Part shown: piece after piece, positions 15,841-63,640 of the stretch | Numbering within the stretch: the stretch's first letter is position 1 | Layout of the letters: every line of letters starts with the position of its first letter | From: a virus | Direction: 5' to 3' (one strand) | DNA: 64,000 nt | Virus record (IMG/VR): IMGVR_UViG_3300021961_000065 | Coordinates: 1-64,000 of that record | The notes under the pieces: generated by a model | Database searches by the model: none | Seen by the model: only the letters and a program-made list of their open reading frames with translations | Told to the model about the DNA's origin: nothing | Position numbers and translations under genes: made by a program

Positions 15841-16146
15841 TTATAATACTTTTTTAGTTAATATTTGTTGCATTCCATCTGTTGTTGTAACTATAAAATT
15901 GGTTGGCATCATACCAAACATCTTATTAAATTTAAGATCAAGTATAGTTTCTGGTAATCCATATATTTCTTTTATACCCATAGCTTTAATTTTAGGTATA
16001 ATAATATTATCCCAAACATGTAAATATCTTTTATAAGTATCAGGACTCCATTGGATTGAATCCATGTGAAGCATCCATCCAGGAAGATCCTTATCATATC
16101 TTATATGGACATATCCATTACCTGGTTCTTCGTATAATATATTCAT
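15841..16146 (-). CDS. Putative GNAT-fold assembly protein (T7 gp13 position)
   Basis: Between nozzle and first ejection protein; KF..MFG pattern; ortholog 59603-59923. Confidence 0.45.
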   Translation of the reverse strand: MNILYEEPGNGYVHIRYDKDLPGWMLHMDSIQWSPDTYKRYLHVWDNIIIPKIKAMGIKEIYGLPETILDLKFNKMFGMMPTNFIVTTTDGMQQILTKKVL

Positions 16147-18395
16147 TAAACATTAGAAGTTGCTGTGGCAGGGAACGCCCATCCTAGTAACTTCATATCT
16201 TTTCCTTCTTCTGAATTTATCTTTAAACTTATTGTTTTACCAGAACCTCTTAGCTTATTCTTTGTTATAATAACTCCATCACCATAGTCAAAAGGATCTC
16301 CTGATCCAGTAGGTATGTAGTTTCTTAATAAACGATAAGCTTGGAATTCTGATCCCCATTTACCACTATTAGCACTATTTGACCAATTCCATTGTGATTG
16401 TACTTTACATGATGATTGGTTATTAAGAATTAAATTAGATCCTGAAGCTATATAGCCATCTTCTGTACGAGTAAAATAGAAGAATACATAAGGTATTTGT
16501 TTGTCTCTCATAACATCACCAAACAACTCATAACCTGTTACAAGATAACTAGTATAGCTAACTCCTGTACCATTTTCTGTTACCCAATCTTTAAATGACA
16601 AGTTATTAAATTTAGATAGAGTAAAAGAAGTACCTACTATAGTTAAATAACTAAATTGTGAACTTCTATTTAATAACAAATCTTCTGTTGTTACTACAGT
16701 ATCAGAATTACTATCTATAACTGTATCTCCACTTGTAACTAATACAGATTGATCAAAACTAGATACGGCATAACCAGGTACTTCAATATAGTCAGCTACA
16801 TAAGGTGAATTAGTTGCAAGATCACTAAATGTATTTGTGTACCAAGCTTGGAGTGTAAGATCATATACAAGTTCCTTGGTATACTTATTTATATAATTAT
16901 TGTTCGTATAAGAAGTACTATCATTATATAACCAACGTACTCTATTTTCTTTCTCATCATAGAATCCTTTACAGTTGTTTTTACCAATGTCAGGAATACC
17001 TAAATATAAAGATTGAATTGTTGTAAGTGATAAAGATTCAGCTTTAAATCTTCCTGCTACAGAGTCTGTAGATAATAAATAAATACCTGCTTTAGACCAA
17101 TATACAAAGTTACCCCCTACATTAACTACAGATTTAGAATTTAAGATTCCATTTGGAGAAATCTTACTTGCTTGGAAAGAAGTAGCTACGAAACCATTAG
17201 TATCTCCATAAACTTCCCACACACCATTCTCTGCAAAGACAAGTAAAGATGATTGAGAAGAAATTATCTTAACAATACGAGTAGCTTCTGGTATCTGAAT
17301 AGTACCCCCATCAGAGTCAATAATGTCATTAATACCAGGATCTGTAGGATCAGCTTCTTGATGACATTTACCTAAGTCTGTATTAGATGTTACAACTTTA
17401 GTAAAGAATATATATCCTGAATAATTAGGAGATTTAGCATCACCATTTGTAACACTAGAATCAATACCTGAATAGAATATACGTTGAGCATAAGAAGCAA
17501 TAGTAGATATATTACCTGTTTCTGTATCTGAATTAAGTCCTGTAACATCTGTTCCTGCTTCTCTAGAAGAACCTCTATCAAAGGCATCTATAATGATTGA
17601 ACCTCTAGCTACTGTATAACGTGATTGTGAGTTCTTTTGTAATACTACTGGATCAAACTTTTCATAATTAGCATCGGCTGAATTACTAATCTTACCAAGA
17701 GTCCATGAATCAGAATTACTTGGATATTTACTTAGAGCAGTAAATGTTTCAGCTAAAGCATCTCCTCCTCCTTTAGTAACAATGTTTTCATTCCAACCTT
17801 GGTTACGAAGATTATACTTATGCTCATCTGATAGAGTAGCAGGTCTTTCATCATCTCCTAAACCATCTACTAATCCCCATATATCTCTAACTTTAATATC
17901 AATAGTAGATTGAGTTACTGTATCTGTTGTACTATTGTAAGAAAGAAGTACAGGTTTATCTATGTCTTTAGAAACAATAATTAACTGATTGTTAATAACA
18001 GCAGTTTCTATATTATTGTTAGATAGTCCTGTTATCGTAATAGAATTACCACTATTTAATAAATTAGCACTAGGAGCTGAAGTTAAGAGATCTATAAACC
18101 ATAGTTTATTTTTAACACGAATAACACCAATAGCTACAGATGAGTTACCACTAGGAGTATCCCATCTATGAAAAGATTGTTTACCTTGTTTAATATCATC
18201 TGCTGTTAAACCTGTAGAAGTCTTTGCATAGGCACCTTCATAGTCTAAACCTAGTCTACGAGAGCGTGAGCCATCTCTATTGAGTACAAAGTTTTGTTCG
18301 TCAATAGAAGCATTCTCTGGAAATGTAAGAGGACTCGCCTCTGTAATTAGACCCTTGACAAAGGATCTAAAGACTTTCTCGGTTTTAGCTGCCAA
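16146..18395 (-). CDS. Tail nozzle / tubular protein B
   Basis: 749-aa beta-rich, F.KGLITEASPL..NFVLNRDGSRSRRLG; position. Confidence 0.75.
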   Translation of the reverse strand: MAAKTEKVFRSFVKGLITEASPLTFPENASIDEQNFVLNRDGSRSRRLGLDYEGAYAKTSTGLTADDIKQGKQSFHRWDTPSGNSSVAIGVIRVKNKLWFIDLLTSAPSANLLNSGNSITITGLSNNNIETAVINNQLIIVSKDIDKPVLLSYNSTTDTVTQSTIDIKVRDIWGLVDGLGDDERPATLSDEHKYNLRNQGWNENIVTKGGGDALAETFTALSKYPSNSDSWTLGKISNSADANYEKFDPVVLQKNSQSRYTVARGSIIIDAFDRGSSREAGTDVTGLNSDTETGNISTIASYAQRIFYSGIDSSVTNGDAKSPNYSGYIFFTKVVTSNTDLGKCHQEADPTDPGINDIIDSDGGTIQIPEATRIVKIISSQSSLLVFAENGVWEVYGDTNGFVATSFQASKISPNGILNSKSVVNVGGNFVYWSKAGIYLLSTDSVAGRFKAESLSLTTIQSLYLGIPDIGKNNCKGFYDEKENRVRWLYNDSTSYTNNNYINKYTKELVYDLTLQAWYTNTFSDLATNSPYVADYIEVPGYAVSSFDQSVLVTSGDTVIDSNSDTVVTTEDLLLNRSSQFSYLTIVGTSFTLSKFNNLSFKDWVTENGTGVSYTSYLVTGYELFGDVMRDKQIPYVFFYFTRTEDGYIASGSNLILNNQSSCKVQSQWNWSNSANSGKWGSEFQAYRLLRNYIPTGSGDPFDYGDGVIITKNKLRGSGKTISLKINSEEGKDMKLLGWAFPATATSNV

Positions 18396-18399
18396 TTAA

Positions 18400-18669
18400 T
18401 TATTCCTCAGTAGATTGTTCTTCTTTTTCTTTAATAGTCTTTTTAAGATCTTTAACAAACTCTTTGTTTTCTGCTTTCTTTTCGAAACGATCTTTGTTAT
18501 TTAGTAGATAGTTACGAACAGCTATTTGTGCTACAGCACTTGATGTAAAGAATCCTGCTAGTTCTTGTGGTGTTTGTCCACCTTGAGTAAATTGTATTTT
18601 ATAATGTCCAGTACCTGGAGCATTAACAATCTGTATCTCCTTACCATTTGGGGTCATAAATGTATCCAT
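18400..18669 (-). CDS. Hypothetical protein
   Basis: GG..P..L.G.FTS conserved with 62214-62456. Confidence 0.7.
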   Translation of the reverse strand: MDTFMTPNGKEIQIVNAPGTGHYKIQFTQGGQTPQELAGFFTSSAVAQIAVRNYLLNNKDRFEKKAENKEFVKDLKKTIKEKEEQSTEE

Positions 18670-18683
18670 TGTTTATCCTTAAG

Positions 18684-18920
18684 TTATTTAATTTTAGACT
18701 TTTTATAGTTCTCTTTGTTTTCTTCTCTAGTTTGAATAGTTCTAGCCATAGAGTCTTTAACTATGTTTTTCATACCTTCATAGAGCTTCTTACCTGCTTT
18801 GATAGGTGAGGGTGGTTTACCTTCGCCCATATTAGCTTTAGTAGAGTTAGCATCACGAATAGCTGCTATCTCTTCAGCAGTCATTTCGCTAGGTTTTTTA
18901 CCTTTATATAAATCTCCCAT
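18684..18920 (-). CDS. Hypothetical charged protein
   Basis: Coupled ORF; C-terminus weakly similar to 62458-62697. Confidence 0.55.
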   Translation of the reverse strand: MGDLYKGKKPSEMTAEEIAAIRDANSTKANMGEGKPPSPIKAGKKLYEGMKNIVKDSMARTIQTREENKENYKKSKIK

Positions 18921-19336
18921 TAGTTTCCTCCCATCATTTTACGAGCTTTTCTTTCAGCTTCTCTAGCCCAAGACATACGATCTTCTGATGGTTCTGACTT
19001 AGCTGATAAAGTACCAGTAGCTGTTTCTTTTGATTGACTCAAATTATTAACATAGTCTTGTACAATAGGATTATTAGAATAGCTCTCTGCAGAAGAAGTA
19101 GATTCTTTTACACTAGATTTAGAATTATAATTAGGTCCTTGTCTAAGCACATCATCAGATTGTCTTACTACTGAAGTTTGAGGAGCTGTTGATTTACGAG
19201 GTACTGTATAATCAGGTCCTTTTGAAGTATCAGTAGGAATATACTTAGGTTTTTTTAGATTAGCTTTATATCTTTCATTAGCTTCTTTATTAGCTTTTTC
19301 ATAAGAAGGTTGTTTGTACTTTTTCATGAGTGGCAT
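18920..19336 (-). CDS. Low-complexity hypothetical protein, copy A only
   Basis: Ser/Lys-rich ORF with SD AAGGA. Confidence 0.55.
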   Translation of the reverse strand: MPLMKKYKQPSYEKANKEANERYKANLKKPKYIPTDTSKGPDYTVPRKSTAPQTSVVRQSDDVLRQGPNYNSKSSVKESTSSAESYSNNPIVQDYVNNLSQSKETATGTLSAKSEPSEDRMSWAREAERKARKMMGGN

Positions 19337-19338
19337 GA

Positions 19339-19482
19339 TTAATATCCTTGTTTTTTAGGTTTAACTATCTTTTTCATAGGTTTCTTTTTCATTGTTTTCA
19401 TAGAAGTTTTCCTTTTCTTAGTTGATTTACCATATTGTTCTTTGTGAACAAATGCCTGAGTATTGCTCGTTAGTTGTGACAT
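19339..19482 (-). CDS. Small basic protein with MCP-like N-terminus (47 aa)
   Basis: MSQLTSNTQAFVHKEQYGKSTKKRKTSMKTMKKKPMKKIVKPKKQGY; TAATG-coupled; ortholog 62700-62864. Confidence 0.8.
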   Translation of the reverse strand: MSQLTSNTQAFVHKEQYGKSTKKRKTSMKTMKKKPMKKIVKPKKQGY

Positions 19483-20258
19483 TAGTAGTTAGGTTTTCCT
19501 TTCACTCCTGGTTTACGTCCATAATTACCAAAGGTAATTCCATTCTTTAGTTTCCATGCCTCTTGAGACATTCTACGTTTCTGTGAAACGGATACTTGTT
19601 CAGCCTTAGGATTACCCATTTGTTTTAATGTAATAAAGCAAGTAGACTTAGCTTCTGCTAATAAGTATGTAAACATTTGAACAGGAAGATCAGGTGTAAA
19701 AGAATCTGTTATACTAAAAGCAACTGATCGTTTGCCATGACACTGTGTCTTACTACTTACAAGAGTAGAATTAACAGCACTATCATAAGAATCAAATACA
19801 AGATTGTCATCATCAAATGAAGTAAAGTATTGAGGAGGTTTATCATTATAAATTAATAAAGATATACCTGTTGTATCTGTTACTGTAGTTACATTAGATG
19901 CAGAACTATCTCTTTGATTCAAGATATAAAGAAAGTCTTCAGGAGTCTTATAGAGAATCTCTTTATACTTGTCCTTAGTATCTGTAAGTTTTCTACAATT
20001 ATAATTAAGCTTCTTAAGATCAATAATAGTTTCAGGTAGACTCATGTGAGTAGGTCTTGCTGAAGTACCACTACTATCTAATTGAAACAACTCATAGAGA
20101 AAAGGAAAGTCTTTACCATCTATAATGTTATAATAAGTTGATTTAATAATCTGTGCTACTTGTAAGGCTTCGACTGTATCATTAATACTATTAATTTCAT
20201 CAGAGTCCATATCTGACATGATGTCTTGTACCATTTCAAGTAGTGTCATTTTAGCCAT
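19482..20258 (-). CDS. Tail adaptor / tubular protein A
   Basis: MTLLEMVQDIMSDMDSDEINSI; position; highly conserved with 62864-63640. Confidence 0.7.
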   Translation of the reverse strand: MAKMTLLEMVQDIMSDMDSDEINSINDTVEALQVAQIIKSTYYNIIDGKDFPFLYELFQLDSSGTSARPTHMSLPETIIDLKKLNYNCRKLTDTKDKYKEILYKTPEDFLYILNQRDSSASNVTTVTDTTGISLLIYNDKPPQYFTSFDDDNLVFDSYDSAVNSTLVSSKTQCHGKRSVAFSITDSFTPDLPVQMFTYLLAEAKSTCFITLKQMGNPKAEQVSVSQKRRMSQEAWKLKNGITFGNYGRKPGVKGKPNY

Positions 20259-20262
20259 AATT

Positions 20263-20835
20263 TTATCCTAGAAATAAAACAGTTAAACCTGCTTCAGTTG
20301 GAGTAATATTAGTTCCTGAAGAAGTACCATCTCCTCCTACAAACATGGATAGTGTTTGACCTGCTGTTGCATTAACTAAACCACTAGAAGCTAAAGTAAT
20401 TTTATCAGCTCCATTAGTAGGTTTAGCAACAGTTGTTAATCGAGCTCCTACAGAACCATTTAAAGCATATTTAAAGTTATAAACTGAACCTGAAGCAATA
20501 GCTGCTGTTGTAAAGTTAATCCAGAAATCTACATAATAAGTACCTGCTTGATTAAGAGTAATGATACCACTTGCAGGAGTTGTAGTTAAAATAGACACAT
20601 CACCTTGTGTCCATTCTCCACTTGGATTAAGAAGTGAATAAGCAGAAGCACCTGCTAATGTATGAGCAGTAGCACCTGCTGAGATGTATAGATCTGCATG
20701 AGCTTTACCTGGAGGGTATGTCCATGCACCAGAACCTGATCCATTAGAAATATATACTTTACCACTTGTAGCAGCAGCTACACCCTTAGGCTCATGTATA
20801 TCTGGATCTGTGATAATGTTATGTTGTATAGTCAT
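20263..20835 (-). CDS. Virion structural protein (beta-rich)
   Basis: IHEPKG..A..G.VY.SNGSGSG.W N-terminus; ortholog at 63650-64000. Confidence 0.55.
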   Translation of the reverse strand: MTIQHNIITDPDIHEPKGVAAATSGKVYISNGSGSGAWTYPPGKAHADLYISAGATAHTLAGASAYSLLNPSGEWTQGDVSILTTTPASGIITLNQAGTYYVDFWINFTTAAIASGSVYNFKYALNGSVGARLTTVAKPTNGADKITLASSGLVNATAGQTLSMFVGGDGTSSGTNITPTEAGLTVLFLG

Positions 20836-21387: not shown

Positions 21388-22368
21388 TTAGTAATTAGAT
21401 GGATGAGTTAAAATTACACCCAACGTGTCAACACGTTGAGCACCAAAACCGAAGCGAGAAGTAACTTGATACTTGTCAGCTCTTTCTTCGTTGTCTCTCC
21501 AACCTTCTGTTTTTGGAGCACGTCTCCATGCGTGCATAATTGGCTTGCATGAATCATCAGCCACACACATAAATACGTTTGCTTTGTCACCAACAGCAGC
21601 AGTTTCAGATGTTAAACCATATGAAGAAGCATTGATAGCTTCAGTAGCTGTTAATGTAGGTAAGAAGTTAGAAGTATAGATGTCGAAACCAAAGATATTC
21701 TTAACGAATTTATGATCACGAGCAAAACCTTCTGTTACAATACCATCAAACATTGGGTTATTTGAAACGTTAACTAAGTTTTGTAAGCTATTTAATGTAG
21801 CTTCAACAACTGGATCAACGATAGCAATACGACCACCTGCAGGAACATTAGCTTTATCAAATGCTAATTTCATAGCGATAAAGTCTTCTAATGTAATAGT
21901 TCTTGCATTAGCTGCAGCAGAACCTACCCAACGATGTGGACGACCATTAACTAAGTTAAGGTTAGCTGCAGTTTGACCTGAGTTAGCAGCAGCTAAATAT
22001 TTAGTTTCGTGGTTTTCACCAAGAGCACGTGTAGATTCCATAGCTCTCATAGACATTAATGTGTCTACTTGTGAACCATCTTCACGTAAGTCGTCAGAAA
22101 CTTTCCAAGCATCACCAACATAGTCAGTAATAGCAAGTGTTAAGTTACCTGTGTCAATAGGTGAGAAATTTAAAGGTGTATCCTCAGCAGCATCTTGAAG
22201 AGTTACTGTACCTACTGTTTTAATGTTTAAAGTTGTACCTGAACCAAAGTCAGTTACATCTCTCCACATTCCTTCTGGCAATAGATAGTCATGTAAGTTT
22301 TCAAGGATAAACTGAGAATACTGTTGAGCTTCAATAAAAGCTGTAGTATTAGAAGTTAATTGTGACAT
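21388..22368 (-). CDS. Major capsid protein
   Basis: 326 aa after scaffold; G.T..I..VG, LDKANVP..GR..IVDP-like pattern, C-terminal FGFG..R; strong SD. Confidence 0.85.
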   Translation of the reverse strand: MSQLTSNTTAFIEAQQYSQFILENLHDYLLPEGMWRDVTDFGSGTTLNIKTVGTVTLQDAAEDTPLNFSPIDTGNLTLAITDYVGDAWKVSDDLREDGSQVDTLMSMRAMESTRALGENHETKYLAAANSGQTAANLNLVNGRPHRWVGSAAANARTITLEDFIAMKLAFDKANVPAGGRIAIVDPVVEATLNSLQNLVNVSNNPMFDGIVTEGFARDHKFVKNIFGFDIYTSNFLPTLTATEAINASSYGLTSETAAVGDKANVFMCVADDSCKPIMHAWRRAPKTEGWRDNEERADKYQVTSRFGFGAQRVDTLGVILTHPSNY

Positions 22369-22381
22369 TTAAGTCTCCTTG

Positions 22382-23101
22382 TTAATTGTTTAATTGTCGT
22401 TTTACTTTTTCACCTGCAATTCGCCAAGCATTAAGCATATCTTTAGTAGAAGCACCTTTAGGTACTCTAGCAGATAACTCATCTGTTGCTTTATTATTAG
22501 ATAAAGATTCTGTATTTACAGTACTTTGTGATTTTGCAACTGTTGTAGCTCTGTTATCAAAACCTGCTAATTTTAAAACAACATTTGGAGATGTTGCAGA
22601 TAAATTGTGTAATTGTTCTAGTGTCATACCTGACTCTTTTGCTAAGGTATTATAAACTTCTTCAGCTTTACTTCCATACTTTTCAGTAAACTTGTCAGCT
22701 ACTGAACGAGCATTAGTTTGAGCTTTAGTTAGTTTTTCCCTTTGCTGTAAGGTTTGATTAACTAGATCCATGATTCTATCTTGGTTTATTTCACTCGTAG
22801 AAGTGGTAGCTTCTTGAGGTTGAATACCAGACTTTATTTCATCAAGTAACTCTTCTGTTGTTCTACGTTTAGCAAGTTCCTCTTTCAAATGAGTCATTTC
22901 TTCCTCTAGGGTTTTGATATGCTCTTGTGCATGAGGCACTGATCTTAACGCATCATCAACAGATTTATACTTTTTACCTTCGCCTACAAACTCTTGAGCT
23001 TCTGTCGGTATCTCAAAAGGTCTAGCTTGGGTATCTTGTTGCTGAGTCTCTTGGGTATTTGACTCAACAGCTTGTTCTTGTTTAACTTGTTCTTCACTCA
23101 T
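22382..23101 (-). CDS. Scaffolding protein
   Basis: Acidic coiled coil between portal and MCP. Confidence 0.7.
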   Translation of the reverse strand: MSEEQVKQEQAVESNTQETQQQDTQARPFEIPTEAQEFVGEGKKYKSVDDALRSVPHAQEHIKTLEEEMTHLKEELAKRRTTEELLDEIKSGIQPQEATTSTSEINQDRIMDLVNQTLQQREKLTKAQTNARSVADKFTEKYGSKAEEVYNTLAKESGMTLEQLHNLSATSPNVVLKLAGFDNRATTVAKSQSTVNTESLSNNKATDELSARVPKGASTKDMLNAWRIAGEKVKRQLNN

Positions 23102-23360: not shown

Positions 23361-25148
23361 TTAAATTAACCCTGCTCCCTGTAAGACAGACTCATTTAAG
23401 TCGTCTTCAATAGGTTCTTGTGCTTGCATCTGAGCTTCTTGTTGAGCAGACATAGCTAACTTCTGTGTTTCAGCATTTTCAAAGATAGCTGCGTTGTCTT
23501 TAATAAACTCATAAGCTTCAAAACCCATGTACTCTTCCACCATCTTAGCTAATTGTTTAGCAGAGATATGTGGTGAAATCATTTGTCCAATCGGACTATT
23601 AAATAAACCTATAATGTTTTGAATTAACTGTGCTCGTGCTGCATAATGTCTAGCACCTATAGGACGTAATTTACCTTTAGCTGTAATATCTTCTTTAGTA
23701 ATAGATATAAAGTCAGCAACACCTAAGTCGTTATCCATTACTTTAGCAATCTCTGCAACATCTAAATTACGTCTAGCTGTTTCAAGCATTGTATTTAAAA
23801 TAGGTTCTATAAATTCTATTTCAAATTTATTAACTTTGTTTTGGAAAATACGACCTGCAGCATTTTGTAATTGTTGTACTTCAAATGCTGTTTTTTCACC
23901 TGGACTACGAATACCCATAGCTTCTCTAGGTGCTCCTGCCATTTCTTCCATAAGTTGTAATAACATACCAATTTCATTATTAACTTGGAAAGCAGCAGGA
24001 TTAGGAGGCATCATATCTACATCACCATCTTCAGGAATATGAATTACTGATTCAGGACCCCATTCAAATGGTTCTACATCACCTTTAATTCTAATTGGTG
24101 GATGTATTGTTAAATCTAGTGCATCTGCTTTTAAGTTTTCTAAATGGTCTACTCGATATTGCATACCTACTAAATTATCTAAAGGACCCATCGCATATAA
24201 ATTATCAGGACGATTTCTCCATCCTACATGATGTTTATTATCTTTACCTAAGTAAGATGGATTTTCTATATTACGTAATACATAACTACGATCTACAATA
24301 GTAATAATTCTATTTTCAAGTAACTCATCATCATGTTCACTATAAATAGTTCCTTCAAATTCTAATATTTCTACTAAACCTGATTGATAATATTCTTGTA
24401 ATGAACCAAAACCATCAATGTGATAAGCTTCTGCTTTGTTAATATCTTCTAATCTAAATTGAGTTATATTACGTCTTACATCCATAGTTTTATTAAAAGA
24501 ATCTATGTTGTATTGTAGATCAGGTCGTTTATCAATATCTAATTTAAGTTCACCTACTGTTTTTACATATCGTGTAAATTTAGGAGTATCTTTAAATGCT
24601 TTAGCTGTTGGATTAAAAATAATATCAAATGGTGATATTCTTTCTAGTTTAGGACCAGTATAAGTAACTATTTCTTCTTTTGTAATAGGATCAATATGTT
24701 TTTCTGTAATATAGTTTACTTCTGCAAAAGAATTACCATAATCAATGTAGTCATATACTAATTGAGCTACTGTTTCTCTAAAACCTGATTCTTTTAGTTT
24801 AGTTTTTAAATAGGCTTCAATCGCTTTACGTTTTGCTGTAGTTGTATCTTCTAAAGAAGCTCCTTCCCATTTCATCCAGTTATCATTAGGAAATAAAGCA
24901 TCCATGTAGTTAGCATGAAGATTATCTCTAATCTGAGTTAATTTAGGAAGTGTTGTTTTATTCTTCCAAGGAAGTTTAGAGTTAGTTGTTTTAGTGGTAT
25001 CAGTTGCAAATAGATAGTTTCTTAATTCTCTCCATTCTTCTTCTTTATCTTGTCTTTGAATCCACCAATTATTGTAGAGATGTCCTAGCTGTCTTGCTAA
25101 ATTTTCTCTAGCTAACATTTGTTTAATTTCTGCGACTTTTCCTGCCAT
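23361..25148 (-). CDS. Portal protein
   Basis: 595 aa after terminase; YDYIDYGN, MAGAP...G, KTAFEV. Confidence 0.85.
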   Translation of the reverse strand: MAGKVAEIKQMLARENLARQLGHLYNNWWIQRQDKEEEWRELRNYLFATDTTKTTNSKLPWKNKTTLPKLTQIRDNLHANYMDALFPNDNWMKWEGASLEDTTTAKRKAIEAYLKTKLKESGFRETVAQLVYDYIDYGNSFAEVNYITEKHIDPITKEEIVTYTGPKLERISPFDIIFNPTAKAFKDTPKFTRYVKTVGELKLDIDKRPDLQYNIDSFNKTMDVRRNITQFRLEDINKAEAYHIDGFGSLQEYYQSGLVEILEFEGTIYSEHDDELLENRIITIVDRSYVLRNIENPSYLGKDNKHHVGWRNRPDNLYAMGPLDNLVGMQYRVDHLENLKADALDLTIHPPIRIKGDVEPFEWGPESVIHIPEDGDVDMMPPNPAAFQVNNEIGMLLQLMEEMAGAPREAMGIRSPGEKTAFEVQQLQNAAGRIFQNKVNKFEIEFIEPILNTMLETARRNLDVAEIAKVMDNDLGVADFISITKEDITAKGKLRPIGARHYAARAQLIQNIIGLFNSPIGQMISPHISAKQLAKMVEEYMGFEAYEFIKDNAAIFENAETQKLAMSAQQEAQMQAQEPIEDDLNESVLQGAGLI

Positions 25149-25158
25149 AATAATTTCC

Positions 25159-26688
25159 TTAGTAAGTTACTCCCCCAAAACGAGAGTGTGTTTGTATACG
25201 ACTTGTCATATTAATAACATTACCTCTACCTTTTGGTACGATTGAAATAGCAATAGCATTGGCTAGTGCATCTTTAATATCATCGTGAGGAGGATGTCTT
25301 TGTGTTAATTCTTCTTCTAATGGTTGGCAATTACCTCCTTTGTAATGCCATATTTGTTTATTATCATATTTAGGTTCTAAAATAGCACTAATACGTTGTC
25401 GTTTATCACCCATATGTCGTGTAGGTCTATACTCATCAATAGCAAGAGGTATACCATTAGGTCGTAAATAACTATCTTTTAATTCTTTAACAATAAGTTG
25501 TTGAGCTACAGTAATTTCAGCTCGTAGTTTTCTAAATCCCCACTTTTCCCAAGAACGTAATATATGAGAATAGTAATCAACAATTTTATCTGTTTTAAAA
25601 CGATCTATATCTAAGACATAATAATTAGCTTGACTATCTACACCAATGATAACAAGAGCTGTATAGTCAGCTTTTTTACGTAAACTAAAAGCAAAGTCAA
25701 TCGCTGCATATATATTTAATTTACGATCTCGTATAAACCAGTCGCCTTCTTTATTTGTTAAAACTGAACGATCATAATATTGAAAATCATCTACATTTAA
25801 ATTAGCTGTTTCTTTACTATTAGGATCATTATAATATTGTGCAAAGAATTGAGTTTGATCTACATATTTAGCACGAATACGAGCTAATTCTCTTGCATCA
25901 AATCCAAATGATTTACCATCTTTACGTTTTTGTTTACTCCAAAGAAACTCACCATTAGTTTCTACTACTCGTTGAAATAATTCATAGACTGGCTCTTCTT
26001 CAAGCATTTCTCCTTCATCATCATAAATGCTTTCTTTCATGTTTACCATTGTGTCATATATATCTCTGGGGTGATAACGAGTACCAACAACCCACTCAAA
26101 AGCACCAGGATTTTCAATGGAAGCCAGTTGACTATATGCTGACGATACTTTATCTCGTCCCTCTTCAGTATAAGCATTACCAGGCACAACAATGTCGTCA
26201 AGCACAACAACATCAGCATGGAAACCAGTAGTATTTGAAGTAAGTCCAACTGCTTTAACACTGGCATCTCTTACTCCTTCCTCTTTTCTTTTTGGATGAT
26301 CAACAGCTATTTCAGCTACTGCCCATCGTTCTCTTTTGCCCTCTTCAGGATGTAACATTTCAGACCAATAACGTCTATAAATTGGACTATCTATAATTTG
26401 TTTAATTTGATATAATTGTTTTTCAGCTAAATCTGCTGTAGCTGATACATATAATATAGTAGTTTCAGGATGTTTAGTTAACCACCAAGCTGTTCTATAT
26501 GCTACTAATTTAGATTTCATATGTCCACGAGGAAGTAATACAAGTTGATTGTTTTTAGCTTCTTGTCTAGTCCACCATTGTATTAATTCTTCATGTATAG
26601 CTCCCATCATTAAATGAGGAGCTACTAATTTAATAAACGTTAGTAAGTCTTCTTCTGCTGCTTGTCTAATTTGGTCAATTTGACTCAT
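25159..26688 (-). CDS. Terminase large subunit
   Basis: PRGHMKS (Walker A), VVLDD (Walker B), GTRYH, IDFAFS, HDDIKDA. Confidence 0.9.
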   Translation of the reverse strand: MSQIDQIRQAAEEDLLTFIKLVAPHLMMGAIHEELIQWWTRQEAKNNQLVLLPRGHMKSKLVAYRTAWWLTKHPETTILYVSATADLAEKQLYQIKQIIDSPIYRRYWSEMLHPEEGKRERWAVAEIAVDHPKRKEEGVRDASVKAVGLTSNTTGFHADVVVLDDIVVPGNAYTEEGRDKVSSAYSQLASIENPGAFEWVVGTRYHPRDIYDTMVNMKESIYDDEGEMLEEEPVYELFQRVVETNGEFLWSKQKRKDGKSFGFDARELARIRAKYVDQTQFFAQYYNDPNSKETANLNVDDFQYYDRSVLTNKEGDWFIRDRKLNIYAAIDFAFSLRKKADYTALVIIGVDSQANYYVLDIDRFKTDKIVDYYSHILRSWEKWGFRKLRAEITVAQQLIVKELKDSYLRPNGIPLAIDEYRPTRHMGDKRQRISAILEPKYDNKQIWHYKGGNCQPLEEELTQRHPPHDDIKDALANAIAISIVPKGRGNVINMTSRIQTHSRFGGVTY

Positions 26689-62699: not shown

Positions 62700-62864
62700 T
62701 TAGTAACCTTGTTTTTTAGGTTTAGCCATTTTCTTCATTGGTTTCTTTTTAGGCATAGGTTTCTTTTTCATAGGATGTTTCATAGTTTTTTTACCTTTCT
62801 TAGTTGATTTACCATATTGTTCTTTATGAACAAAGGCTTGAGTGTTGCTCGTTAATTGTGTCAT
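62700..62864 (-). CDS. Small basic protein with MCP-like N-terminus, copy B (54 aa)
   Basis: MTQLTSNTQAFVHKEQYGKSTKKGKKTMKHPMKKKPMPKKKPMKKMAKPKKQGY. Confidence 0.8.
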   Translation of the reverse strand: MTQLTSNTQAFVHKEQYGKSTKKGKKTMKHPMKKKPMPKKKPMKKMAKPKKQGY

Positions 62865-63640
62865 TAGTAGTTAGGCTTTCCTTTAATACCTGGTTTACGA
62901 CCATAGTTTCCAAATGTAATACCATTTTTTAGTCTCCAAGCTTCTTGGCTCATTCTACGTTTTTGAGATATAGAAGCTTGTTCTGCTTTAGGATTAGGCA
63001 TTTGTTTTAAAGTTAAGAAACAATTTGATTTAGCTTCTGCTAATAAATAAGTAAACATTTGTACAGGTAAATCAGGTGTAAAAGAATCTGTTATACTAAA
63101 AGTTACTGATCTTTTACCTTGTGCTTTTGTTTTAGAAGAAGACAATGTAGAGTCTATAACACTATCATAAGAATCAAAAACTAAAGTTTCATCATCAAAA
63201 GATGTAAAATAATTAGGACTTTGGTCATTATAAATATTTAAAGTAATACCTGTAGCATCTGTAACAACAGTTACATCAGAAGCAGAGCTATCTCGTTGAT
63301 CTACAATATACATAAAATCTTCAGGTGTTTTATAAATAATTTCTTTATATTTATCTTTAGTATCAGTTAACTTACGACAATTATATTTAATAAATTTAAG
63401 ATCTATAATATCTTCAGGTAGTCTCATGTGTGTAGGTTTTGTATTATCACCTGAAGCTTGTAACTGAAATAACTCATATAAAAATGGCATATCACGACCA
63501 TCTATAATATTATAGTATGTTGATTTAATTATTTGGGCTACTTGAGTGGCTTCTTGAGTATCATTAATACTATTAATTTCATCAGAATCCATGTCTGACA
63601 TTATGTCTTGTACCATTTCAAGTAGTGTCATTTTAGCCAT
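62864..63640 (-). CDS. Tail adaptor / tubular protein A, copy B
   Basis: Ortholog of 19482-20258. Confidence 0.7.
   Translation of the reverse strand: MAKMTLLEMVQDIMSDMDSDEINSINDTQEATQVAQIIKSTYYNIIDGRDMPFLYELFQLQASGDNTKPTHMRLPEDIIDLKFIKYNCRKLTDTKDKYKEIIYKTPEDFMYIVDQRDSSASDVTVVTDATGITLNIYNDQSPNYFTSFDDETLVFDSYDSVIDSTLSSSKTKAQGKRSVTFSITDSFTPDLPVQMFTYLLAEAKSNCFLTLKQMPNPKAEQASISQKRRMSQEAWRLKNGITFGNYGRKPGIKGKPNY

Follow-up and report, generated by a model that had tools for sequence, protein, structure and literature searches.

A small late gene of marine podoviruses encodes a mimic of the major capsid protein N-terminus with a polycationic tail

A small gene of 35-70 codons is conserved in marine phages of OM43 methylotrophs, directly downstream of the adaptor gene, and the first 17 residues of its product mimic the N-terminus of the phage's own major capsid protein (MCP). 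The remainder of the product is a polycationic tail. The gene was found in the window, a 64,000-nucleotide stretch that forms the first 64 kb of a 74.8-kb IMG/VR record (G000:C1:1-74813).

Results

Organization of the locus

The 74.8-kb record is a head-to-tail join of two different, related podovirus genomes of ~43 kb each. These two genome copies, A and B, are offset by ~43.1-44.0 kb and share 66-80% nucleotide identity where they can be aligned; rather than a single genome, the record is probably a chimera in which two species present together were joined during assembly. Their closest cultured relatives are MEP401 and MEP402 (OM43, Methylophilales phages; Zobellviridae), with an MCP identity of 77%. 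The late operon lies on the minus strand and runs from TerL through portal, scaffold, MCP, two small head-associated genes and adaptor to the mini-gene, after which come two small basic ORFs, a conserved 89-aa gene, the nozzle and internal virion proteins (Table 1). The homologue of the scaffold gene carries the annotation scaffold in MEP402 and CW02. The islet that follows the mini-gene varies in length from 353 to 1291 nt across mini-gene-carrying relatives, and its proteins (pI 9.7) gave no family matches. In the gap between MCP and adaptor, a 190-aa protein (20263-20835, minus strand) gave a sub-threshold match to BclA_C (C1q-like; 25.3 bits, cut-off 38), and the CW02 annotation at the equivalent place reads 'possible head fiber'; this protein may be a head fibre or decoration protein.

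Table 1. Positions of the mini-gene, its partners and its neighbours (window coordinates unless the record is named)
Feature	Position	Strand	Remarks
Mini-gene, copy A (47 aa; MCP N-tip mimic and polycationic tail)	19339..19482	-	ORF
Mimic segment, copy A, residues 1-18 (MSQLTSNTQAFVHKEQYG)	19429..19482	-	12/17 identity to MCP N-terminus
Polycationic tail, copy A, residues 19-47 and stop	19339..19428	-	14 K+R, no D/E
Adaptor gene (tail tubular A-like)	19482..20258	-	phrog_7592 tail protein, E 3.8e-91
MCP, copy A (326 aa; T7-like HK97 fold)	21388..22368	-	phrog_267, PF25209
MCP N-arm tip, copy A, residues 1-18 (segment copied)	22315..22368	-	
Mini-gene, copy B (54 aa)	62700..62864	-	
Adaptor gene, copy B	62864..63640	-	stop-start overlap with mini-gene as in copy A
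MCP, copy B (beyond window end)	G000:C1:64785-65765	-	starts MSQLTSNTTAFIEAQQY
Scaffold (239 aa; candidate partner of MCP N-arm)	22382..23101	-	phrog_7931
Portal (595 aa; net charge -24; candidate partner of tail)	23361..25148	-	PF12236
Variable islet of small basic proteins (138 aa, 78 aa), from mini-gene to 89-aa gene	18684..19336	-	
Nozzle (749 aa; tail tubular B-like; bounds the islet downstream)	16146..18395	-	phrog_8094, E 5.6e-188

The mini-protein copies the tip of the major capsid protein

The mini-ORF of copy A reads MSQLTSNTQAFVHKEQYGKSTKKRK...KPKKQGY (also written as MSQLTSNTQAFVHKEQY-GKSTKKRK...KPKKQGY), and the MCP of the same genome begins with MSQLTSNTTAFIEAQQYSQ (also given as MSQLTSNTTAFIEAQQY). 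The likeness of 12 in 17 residues reported in the preliminary description is correct; it becomes 11 of 16 without the Met, and corresponds to 34 identical bases out of 51. The differing serine codons on which that description had remarked are also there, Ser6 being AGC in the mini-gene and TCT in the MCP, and the Leu codons differ too. To place this value, residues 1-17 were compared between all pairs of the 256 ORFs that reach 30 aa or more in one genome copy. Among the resulting 32,640 ORF-start pairs the mini-protein and the MCP agree at 11/16 positions versus 7/16 for the next best pair, which excludes a chance likeness. Furthermore, the strict motif NT..F[IVL]....Y is present in the 74.8-kb record only in the two MCPs and the two mini-ORFs.

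Conservation in copy B had been claimed for the mimic segment, with variation in the basic repeats, and it holds: there is one difference in the first 20 residues, and the tail is longer through indels. A 15-18-nt tandem unit in 2.5 copies, encoding KKPMK-like units, was detected in copy B only. The ORF had also been called unannotated, a statement that has to be corrected, since MEP401 gp37 and MEP402 gp39, which are the mini-gene in cultured phages, are annotated as hypothetical proteins.

Distribution and expression signals

Two IMG/VR scans with adaptor proteins, together with our own scripts, yielded 67 distinct adaptor-nozzle intervals from the MEP401-type (Zobellviridae-like) clade. In 61 of them the mini-gene immediately follows the adaptor stop, and it is kept at adaptor identities down to ~61%. 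The intervals without it belong to locus L052 and to five distant relatives (adaptor identity at most 50%). Marine and freshwater viromes are rich in members of the clade, with 5045 MCP clusters matching at E<1e-10. Outside the clade, no mini-gene was found in the structural loci (13 kb) of Klyazma, CW02, PA11, ICP2, Vibrio 1.264.O and RIO-1. At its place, these six cultured Zobellviridae loci and Manatee Spring (MW202697) have only a small conserved 'GGxxPxELxGxYTS' gene, and neither the six loci nor the Manatee Spring genome holds a further copy of the MCP tip. The MCP N-terminus QLT[ST]NT.AFIE.EQYS is found in five of the six sampled cultured Zobellviridae, and is more diverged in ICP2 and RIO-1. 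Since the mini-gene is unseen in other Zobellviridae with the same MCP N-terminus, it is best regarded as a clade-specific accessory and not as a core part of assembly. Likewise, its absence from L052 and from distant relatives, and the failure to find it in the six structural loci, most of which have a very similar MCP N-terminus, indicate that the lattice does not need it.

Database searches placed the mini-protein in no characterized family. It matched 0 PHROG families at E<=0.01 and no Pfam family, and the curated domains of both collections gave no match to known DNA-binding or histone-like families. A tblastn search of the peptide against 50,697 phage records returned MCP N-termini as the only matches. 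The ESM Atlas yielded only unnamed clusters with scores <0.9, and nine unnamed clusters of a large protein collection contain the mini-protein. The paper describing MEP401 and MEP402 (PMC10580990) does not discuss the gene. No description of such a gene was found in the literature searched, in keeping with the earlier statement that no description of the arrangement was known.

The start codon of the mini-gene overlaps the adaptor stop, usually as TAATG and sometimes with a TTG or ATG that precedes the stop by one base. Most variants have an AGGA at poor spacing or no Shine-Dalgarno (SD) sequence, and the MCP has AGGA or AGGAG. The stop-start overlap together with the weak or absent SD suggests a low dosage, similar to that of the adaptor or below. 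A frameshift fusion to the adaptor was considered and rejected: an in-frame stop lies three codons before the ATG, there is no slippery heptamer, and the start codon is always kept. An RNA element was also rejected, as there was no Rfam match of note in 18300-20400 and nucleotide conservation is below peptide conservation.

The likeness is maintained at the peptide level and follows the MCP

Purifying selection acts on the motif T-x-N-T-x-x-F-[IV]-x4-Y. By the Nei-Gojobori method, 15 codons of the motif give pS 0.69 and pN 0.25 among mini-genes (omega ~0.16), and pS 0.72 (saturated) and pN 0.29 when each mini-gene is compared with the MCP of its own phage. Where the two residues are identical, the codon is also the same in 49.8% of cases within genomes and in 51.9% across genomes. 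With synonymous sites saturated and no excess of codon identity within genomes, the likeness is held by selection on the peptide and not by recent DNA copying, as had been proposed from the codon differences; recent gene conversion from the MCP 5' end is rejected as unlikely on the same figures. In 41 unique nucleotide variants T5, N/D7, T8, F11, I/V12, Y17 and G/S18 are invariant or near-invariant. Among 79 distant MCP representatives (25-62% identity), conservation in the N-terminus is highest at T5, N7, L/F11, I/V12, Y/W/F17 and S18. Hence, the mini-motif retains the residues that are constrained in the MCP family, namely T5, N7, the hydrophobic pair 11-12 and the aromatic 17.

Co-variation of the peptide with the MCP N-terminus, which the preliminary description had made the test of its own idea, was then assessed and is present. 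Over 39 unique pairs and the MCP-variable columns, mini-proteins match their own MCP at 2.90 positions versus 2.01 in shuffled pairs (p<2e-5), and after collapsing to 11 MCP N-terminal variants the values are 3.0 versus 1.79 (p<2e-5); these shuffles leave shared ancestry in and are not fully corrected for it. Derived states are shared between MAH[NT]TANT and M[ST]F[NT]T[AQ]NT, between MASTANT and MAST[KQ]NT (both also shorter by one residue), between MANTGNT and MASTGNT, and between MAQTTSNT and MQTTSNT; in L066, TGNT goes with TGNT. These alignments point to about four or five independent co-variation events. Counter-examples exist too, with MCP Gly6 accompanied by His or Ser in the mini-protein and MAQNTTNT by MTQSTSNT.

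The tail varies in sequence and keeps its charge

Across the 41 variants the tail is 14-53 aa long and contains 8-18 K+R against 0-1 D+E, which gives net charges from +8 to +17, and it comes in several types that cannot be aligned with one another: KSTKK..PMKKK..KPKKQGY, MVKKPGVKVTNPFKQFQ.., KKSKKKVTTKKVKK.., KGKKNGRKVDSKSN.. and AKKKKKLKRG..GSFSKQL.., with longer forms in the MEP401 clade. The PMKKK-type repeats of the preliminary description are thus present, but they characterize just one of these types. Charge conserved over such different sequences shows selection on the charge of the tail. The whole mini-protein (pI 10.6) is the most basic product of the structural module, in which the portal, nozzle (-16) and MCP (-14) are acidic. 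The name 'histone-like', which had been given to the tail, would describe its composition alone.

The tail also shows signs of modularity. In L005, L006 and L019 a separate ORF of 25-26 codons, ~120 nt past the adaptor stop, encodes the C-terminal half of the window's tail type (MK.MKKKPMKK..KPKKQGY), and the mini-gene ahead of it has another type of tail; the occurrence of the KPKKQGY module as its own ORF points to a tag-plus-payload build. L056 has a 66-aa ORF with the same KPKKQGY ending. In L022:5771-6017 (also L023-L037 and L042), the last ~77 nt of the mini-gene overlap a conserved 59-aa basic ORF in another frame (MAEKWIQKAIKKPGALR...), for which a sub-threshold Pfam match to fusellovirus VP2 was obtained (16.8 bits versus a cut-off of 27). 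The adaptor C-termini (19482-19520 and 62864-62900, minus strand) carry a variable basic tail with a C-terminal Tyr (..GRKPGVKGKPNY) that resembles the ..KPKKQGY end of the mini-protein in this clade; other Zobellviridae adaptors end differently. A contribution of the gene to denser DNA packing is not supported, as carriers have genomes of 43-44 kb versus 45-50 kb in relatives without it.

The copied segment belongs to an extended arm

An AF2 model of the MCP built with a deep alignment (pLDDT 86) has the HK97 fold, with residues 1-31 as an extended arm. The assignment agrees with profile matches to PF25209 (43.4 bits, cut-off 27) and phrog_267 (3.9e-47) and with Foldseek matches of the model at probability 1.0 to 8i4l, 9jwb, 7y3t and 3j7w. 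The nearest solved structures are T7-like capsids, those of P-SCSP1u, A4, Kp7/Kp9, T7 and HRP29. In T7-like capsids, extended N-arms dock on neighbouring capsomers, and this arrangement is altered at the portal vertex (PMC10575957; bioRxiv 10.64898/2026.08.19.745834), where portal and adaptor clamp a ring (PMC10575957). Some N-arms next to the portal lose their partner, and in P-SSP7 the hexon subunit adjoining the portal has a disordered N-arm (aa 1-30) (bioRxiv 10.64898/2026.08.19.745834). These published structures make a vacant N-arm site near the portal structurally reasonable. From lattice geometry, the portal vertex should offer the acceptor sites of five penton arms for which there is no donor. 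In P22, the coat N-arm binds the C-terminal helix-turn-helix of the scaffold through N4, D14, E15 and E18 (PMC9965877). The MCP arm has an invariant acidic residue, E13, whose place is taken by H, N or K in all but one of the 41 mini variants.

Two further proteins of the module carry segments that resemble the tip, and the loose motif [ST]xNTxx[FL] matches both scaffold and TerL. Residues ~190-203 of the scaffold, ~45 residues before its C-end, include a conserved [VI]-N-T-[EQ]-x-[LF] (SQSTVNTESL here) that resembles the MCP and mini tip SQLTSNTTAF. It is kept in all clades of the group and is weaker in CW02 and Vibrio 1.264.O; the copy B scaffold lies at G000 ~65779-66497. This segment could be a chance match, about one match to the loose motif being expected per genome, or a third carrier of the motif. 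In TerL, residues 150-157 (~26218-26241, minus strand) read GLTSNTTGF, with 7/8 identical to MCP residues 4-11. The TerL segment adjoins a likely Walker B motif (HADVVVLDD) and is conserved in the Klyazma TerL, for which reasons we read it as probably a coincidence and as a caution against over-reading short motifs.

Discussion

Purifying selection on the motif, a tail selected for its charge and a placement coupled to the adaptor fit a peptide associated with the virion or with its assembly. Tentatively, we prefer to see in the mini-motif a surrogate MCP N-arm tip that would dock where the tip usually docks, possibly at vacant sites round the portal, with the tail contacting DNA or acidic portal surfaces; we hold this to be possible, and short of probable. 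The product would be a two-part accessory peptide of head assembly or of the virion. Its residues 1-17 would be a free-standing stand-in for the MCP N-arm tip and would fill the receptor site for that tip, which could belong to an adjacent capsomer or to a partner that both share; most plausible are the sites that lose their donor arm at the vertex where a penton gives way to the portal. The tail of 14-53 residues would make sequence-independent electrostatic contacts with packaged DNA or with acidic surfaces of portal or adaptor.

This surrogate-arm proposal is consistent with the retention in the motif of the MCP-constrained positions, with variable positions that track the MCP of the same phage (four or more derived states shared at clade level) and with a likeness kept by selection on the peptide at a pS of 0.72. 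It is also consistent with a gene that always comes straight after the adaptor and has a weak SD or none, where the MCP has a clear one; with the T7-like fold and extended N-arm of the MCP and the partnerless portal-side N-arms (bioRxiv 10.64898/2026.08.19.745834); with tails of +8 to +17 in unalignable types alongside an acidic portal (-24) and MCP (-14); and with the modularity seen in L005, L006 and L019, where KPKKQGY is a separate micro-ORF. On the other hand, L052 and more distant relatives lack the gene, a search of the structural loci of six cultured Zobellviridae did not find it, co-variation has its counter-examples and the permutations retain shared ancestry, and short motifs can match by chance, as the TerL segment illustrates. 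Inter-capsomer contacts could moreover come from later parts of the N-arm instead of residues 1-17, and the vacant acceptor sites at the portal vertex are a location that we infer from lattice geometry.

The same mimicry could serve other ends. The N-motif might bind the scaffold as the MCP N-arm does and be carried into the procapsid as an internal protein, which would stay with the DNA after scaffold exit and might be ejected into the host, a protease-free counterpart of the T4 internal proteins. The contact between the P22 coat N-arm and the scaffold helix-turn-helix (PMC9965877) provides a precedent, a tail module that is a separate ORF in some genomes suggests a tag-plus-cargo layout, and a polycation suits DNA binding. 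A need for both N-termini to fit one scaffold would lead to co-variation, and T4 gp61.1 joins a CTS-like leader to a copy of a gp23 segment. However, H, N or K in place of E13 in 40/41 mini variants agrees poorly with electrostatic scaffold binding of the P22 type, the peptide would compete with the MCP for scaffold, its weak translation signals speak against a high copy number, and the scaffold C-terminus varies by clade without an obvious tie to the N-tip variants (judged by eye). We therefore consider this cargo route rather unlikely. Loading could also be beside the point, with the free N-tip competing with MCP N-arms and capping capsomers or scaffold without being a stable virion component; such a modulator would time or limit shell nucleation, or favour portal-containing initiation. 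Mimicry and co-variation fit competitive binding, and a place in the late operon beside the adaptor and an apparently low dosage suit a regulator. Yet this would leave the strongly selected, sequence-free polycationic tail unexplained, and the dispensability of the gene in sister lineages with the same MCP and scaffold argues against a core control of assembly, so that we judge modulation of assembly improbable.

Less probable again, and in our view doubtful, is a decoy that imitates an MCP epitope and soaks up or blocks a sensor of host defence. A phage MCP can directly trigger a bacterial immunity protein such as CapRel SJ46 (PMC9712102). A decoy would need to track the MCP sequence, as is seen here, and in T4 the analogous gene 61.1 has dmd and sp nearby. 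Against this, the gene sits within the structural operon in translational coupling to the adaptor, and the polycationic tail is given no role; to our knowledge, there is no known sensor in the hosts of these phages. Finally, a short, low-complexity ORF without family matches, missed by most gene callers, might be a functionless remnant of a partial duplication of the MCP 5' end, or spurious. Its presence in 61/67 intervals at adaptor identities to ~61%, an omega of ~0.16 with saturated synonymous sites, a start codon kept in place and acid-free tails in independent types effectively refute such a remnant, which we regard as very improbable. These five readings are not exhaustive, and the probability that they leave over is assigned to explanations not thought of.

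A likeness of design is found in T4. Residues 2-38 of gp61.1 (54 aa) share 46% identity with residues 57-93 of gp23 (E 2e-9; loci compared, L091:1967-2131, minus strand, and L092:3446-3999, plus strand), so that here too the core of a small protein copies a segment of the phage's own MCP, and gp61.1 also has a lysine-rich C-terminal stretch. The copied gp23 segment presumably spans the maturation cut site. However, gp61.1 has an internal-protein-like or CTS-like leader (MKTFKEFIKE) and copies an internal gp23 segment, whereas the mini-protein copies the extreme MCP N-terminus; gene 61.1 is among the early genes and the mini-gene in the structural operon; and the gp61.1 tail mixes K and E where that of the mini-protein is purely basic. 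As the mini-protein has no PHROG match, and gene 61.1 is early and has a CTS-like leader, we regard the two as independent analogues alike in design only. No published function of gp61.1 was found in the literature searched.

Internal proteins of T4 are small and basic, are directed into the head, lie with the DNA and are injected. IPI, IPII and IPIII have a short N-terminal address (PMC3012670, PMC7697877), as the mini-protein would have. Unlike them, the mini-protein, of 35-70 aa, uses an MCP-tip copy as its putative address and has no sign of proteolytic removal; it starts with MSQLTSNTQAF and lacks a capsid targeting sequence of the MKTYQEFIAE type. A search of the 74.8-kb record for the HK97-type (S78) prohead protease PF04586 found nothing, although its positive controls worked; that for the T4-type S77 protease PF03420 found nothing either, but its positive controls were silent too. 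P22 offers a case in which an HK97-fold coat protein uses its N-arm for specific docking in assembly (PMC9965877). There, however, the arm is part of the coat protein, and the acidic contact residue is not kept in the mini-protein. We know of no separate mimic peptide in P22. SaPI1 CpmB is likewise a small protein that copies a capsid-assembly segment, the C-terminus of the 80alpha scaffold, and enters the assembly pathway (PMC5644958), but it is encoded by a parasite, copies scaffold and not MCP, redirects capsid size and has no polycationic tail. Scaffold proteins and mimics of the CpmB type are helical with a C-terminal MCP-binding helix-turn-helix, and the mini-protein does not belong with them: its 47 aa comprise an MCP-like N-terminus and K/P/M-rich low complexity.

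Encapsulin cargo-loading peptides are short terminal peptides by which a payload docks to the inside of an HK97-fold shell; unlike the mini-protein, they carry an unrelated motif that is not a copy of a shell arm, and their cargo is an enzyme and not a polycation. Adenovirus mu and VII are small polycationic DNA-associated peptides with a presumed counter-ion or condenser role, and differ from the mini-protein in having no shell-mimic segment, in being processed by the viral protease and in showing no homology. By its sequence, the mini-protein would be akin to a design of an address tag plus a small basic head protein. The separate appearance of the same design in T4 gene 61.1 suggests, by analogy, a general principle that may have been overlooked because such genes are tiny, of low complexity and often not called. 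A wider formulation, which we put forward as speculative and rather improbable as it stands, is that N-arm surrogate peptides form an unrecognised class of phage head proteins that would supply missing arm tips, either at the symmetry-mismatched portal vertex or elsewhere where arms are lacking, and hold DNA or portal by a fuzzy cationic tail, with independent origins in Zobellviridae-like podoviruses and T4-like phages (61.1).

Two members of the clade are in culture, which makes the idea testable. If the peptide docks through its copy of the MCP arm, it would offer a natural, protease-free route by which a payload reaches a defined site in an HK97-fold shell. If this is true, it could show how the lattice is completed, or DNA or portal retained, at the portal vertex, where the mismatch between 5-fold and 12-fold symmetry is poorly understood.
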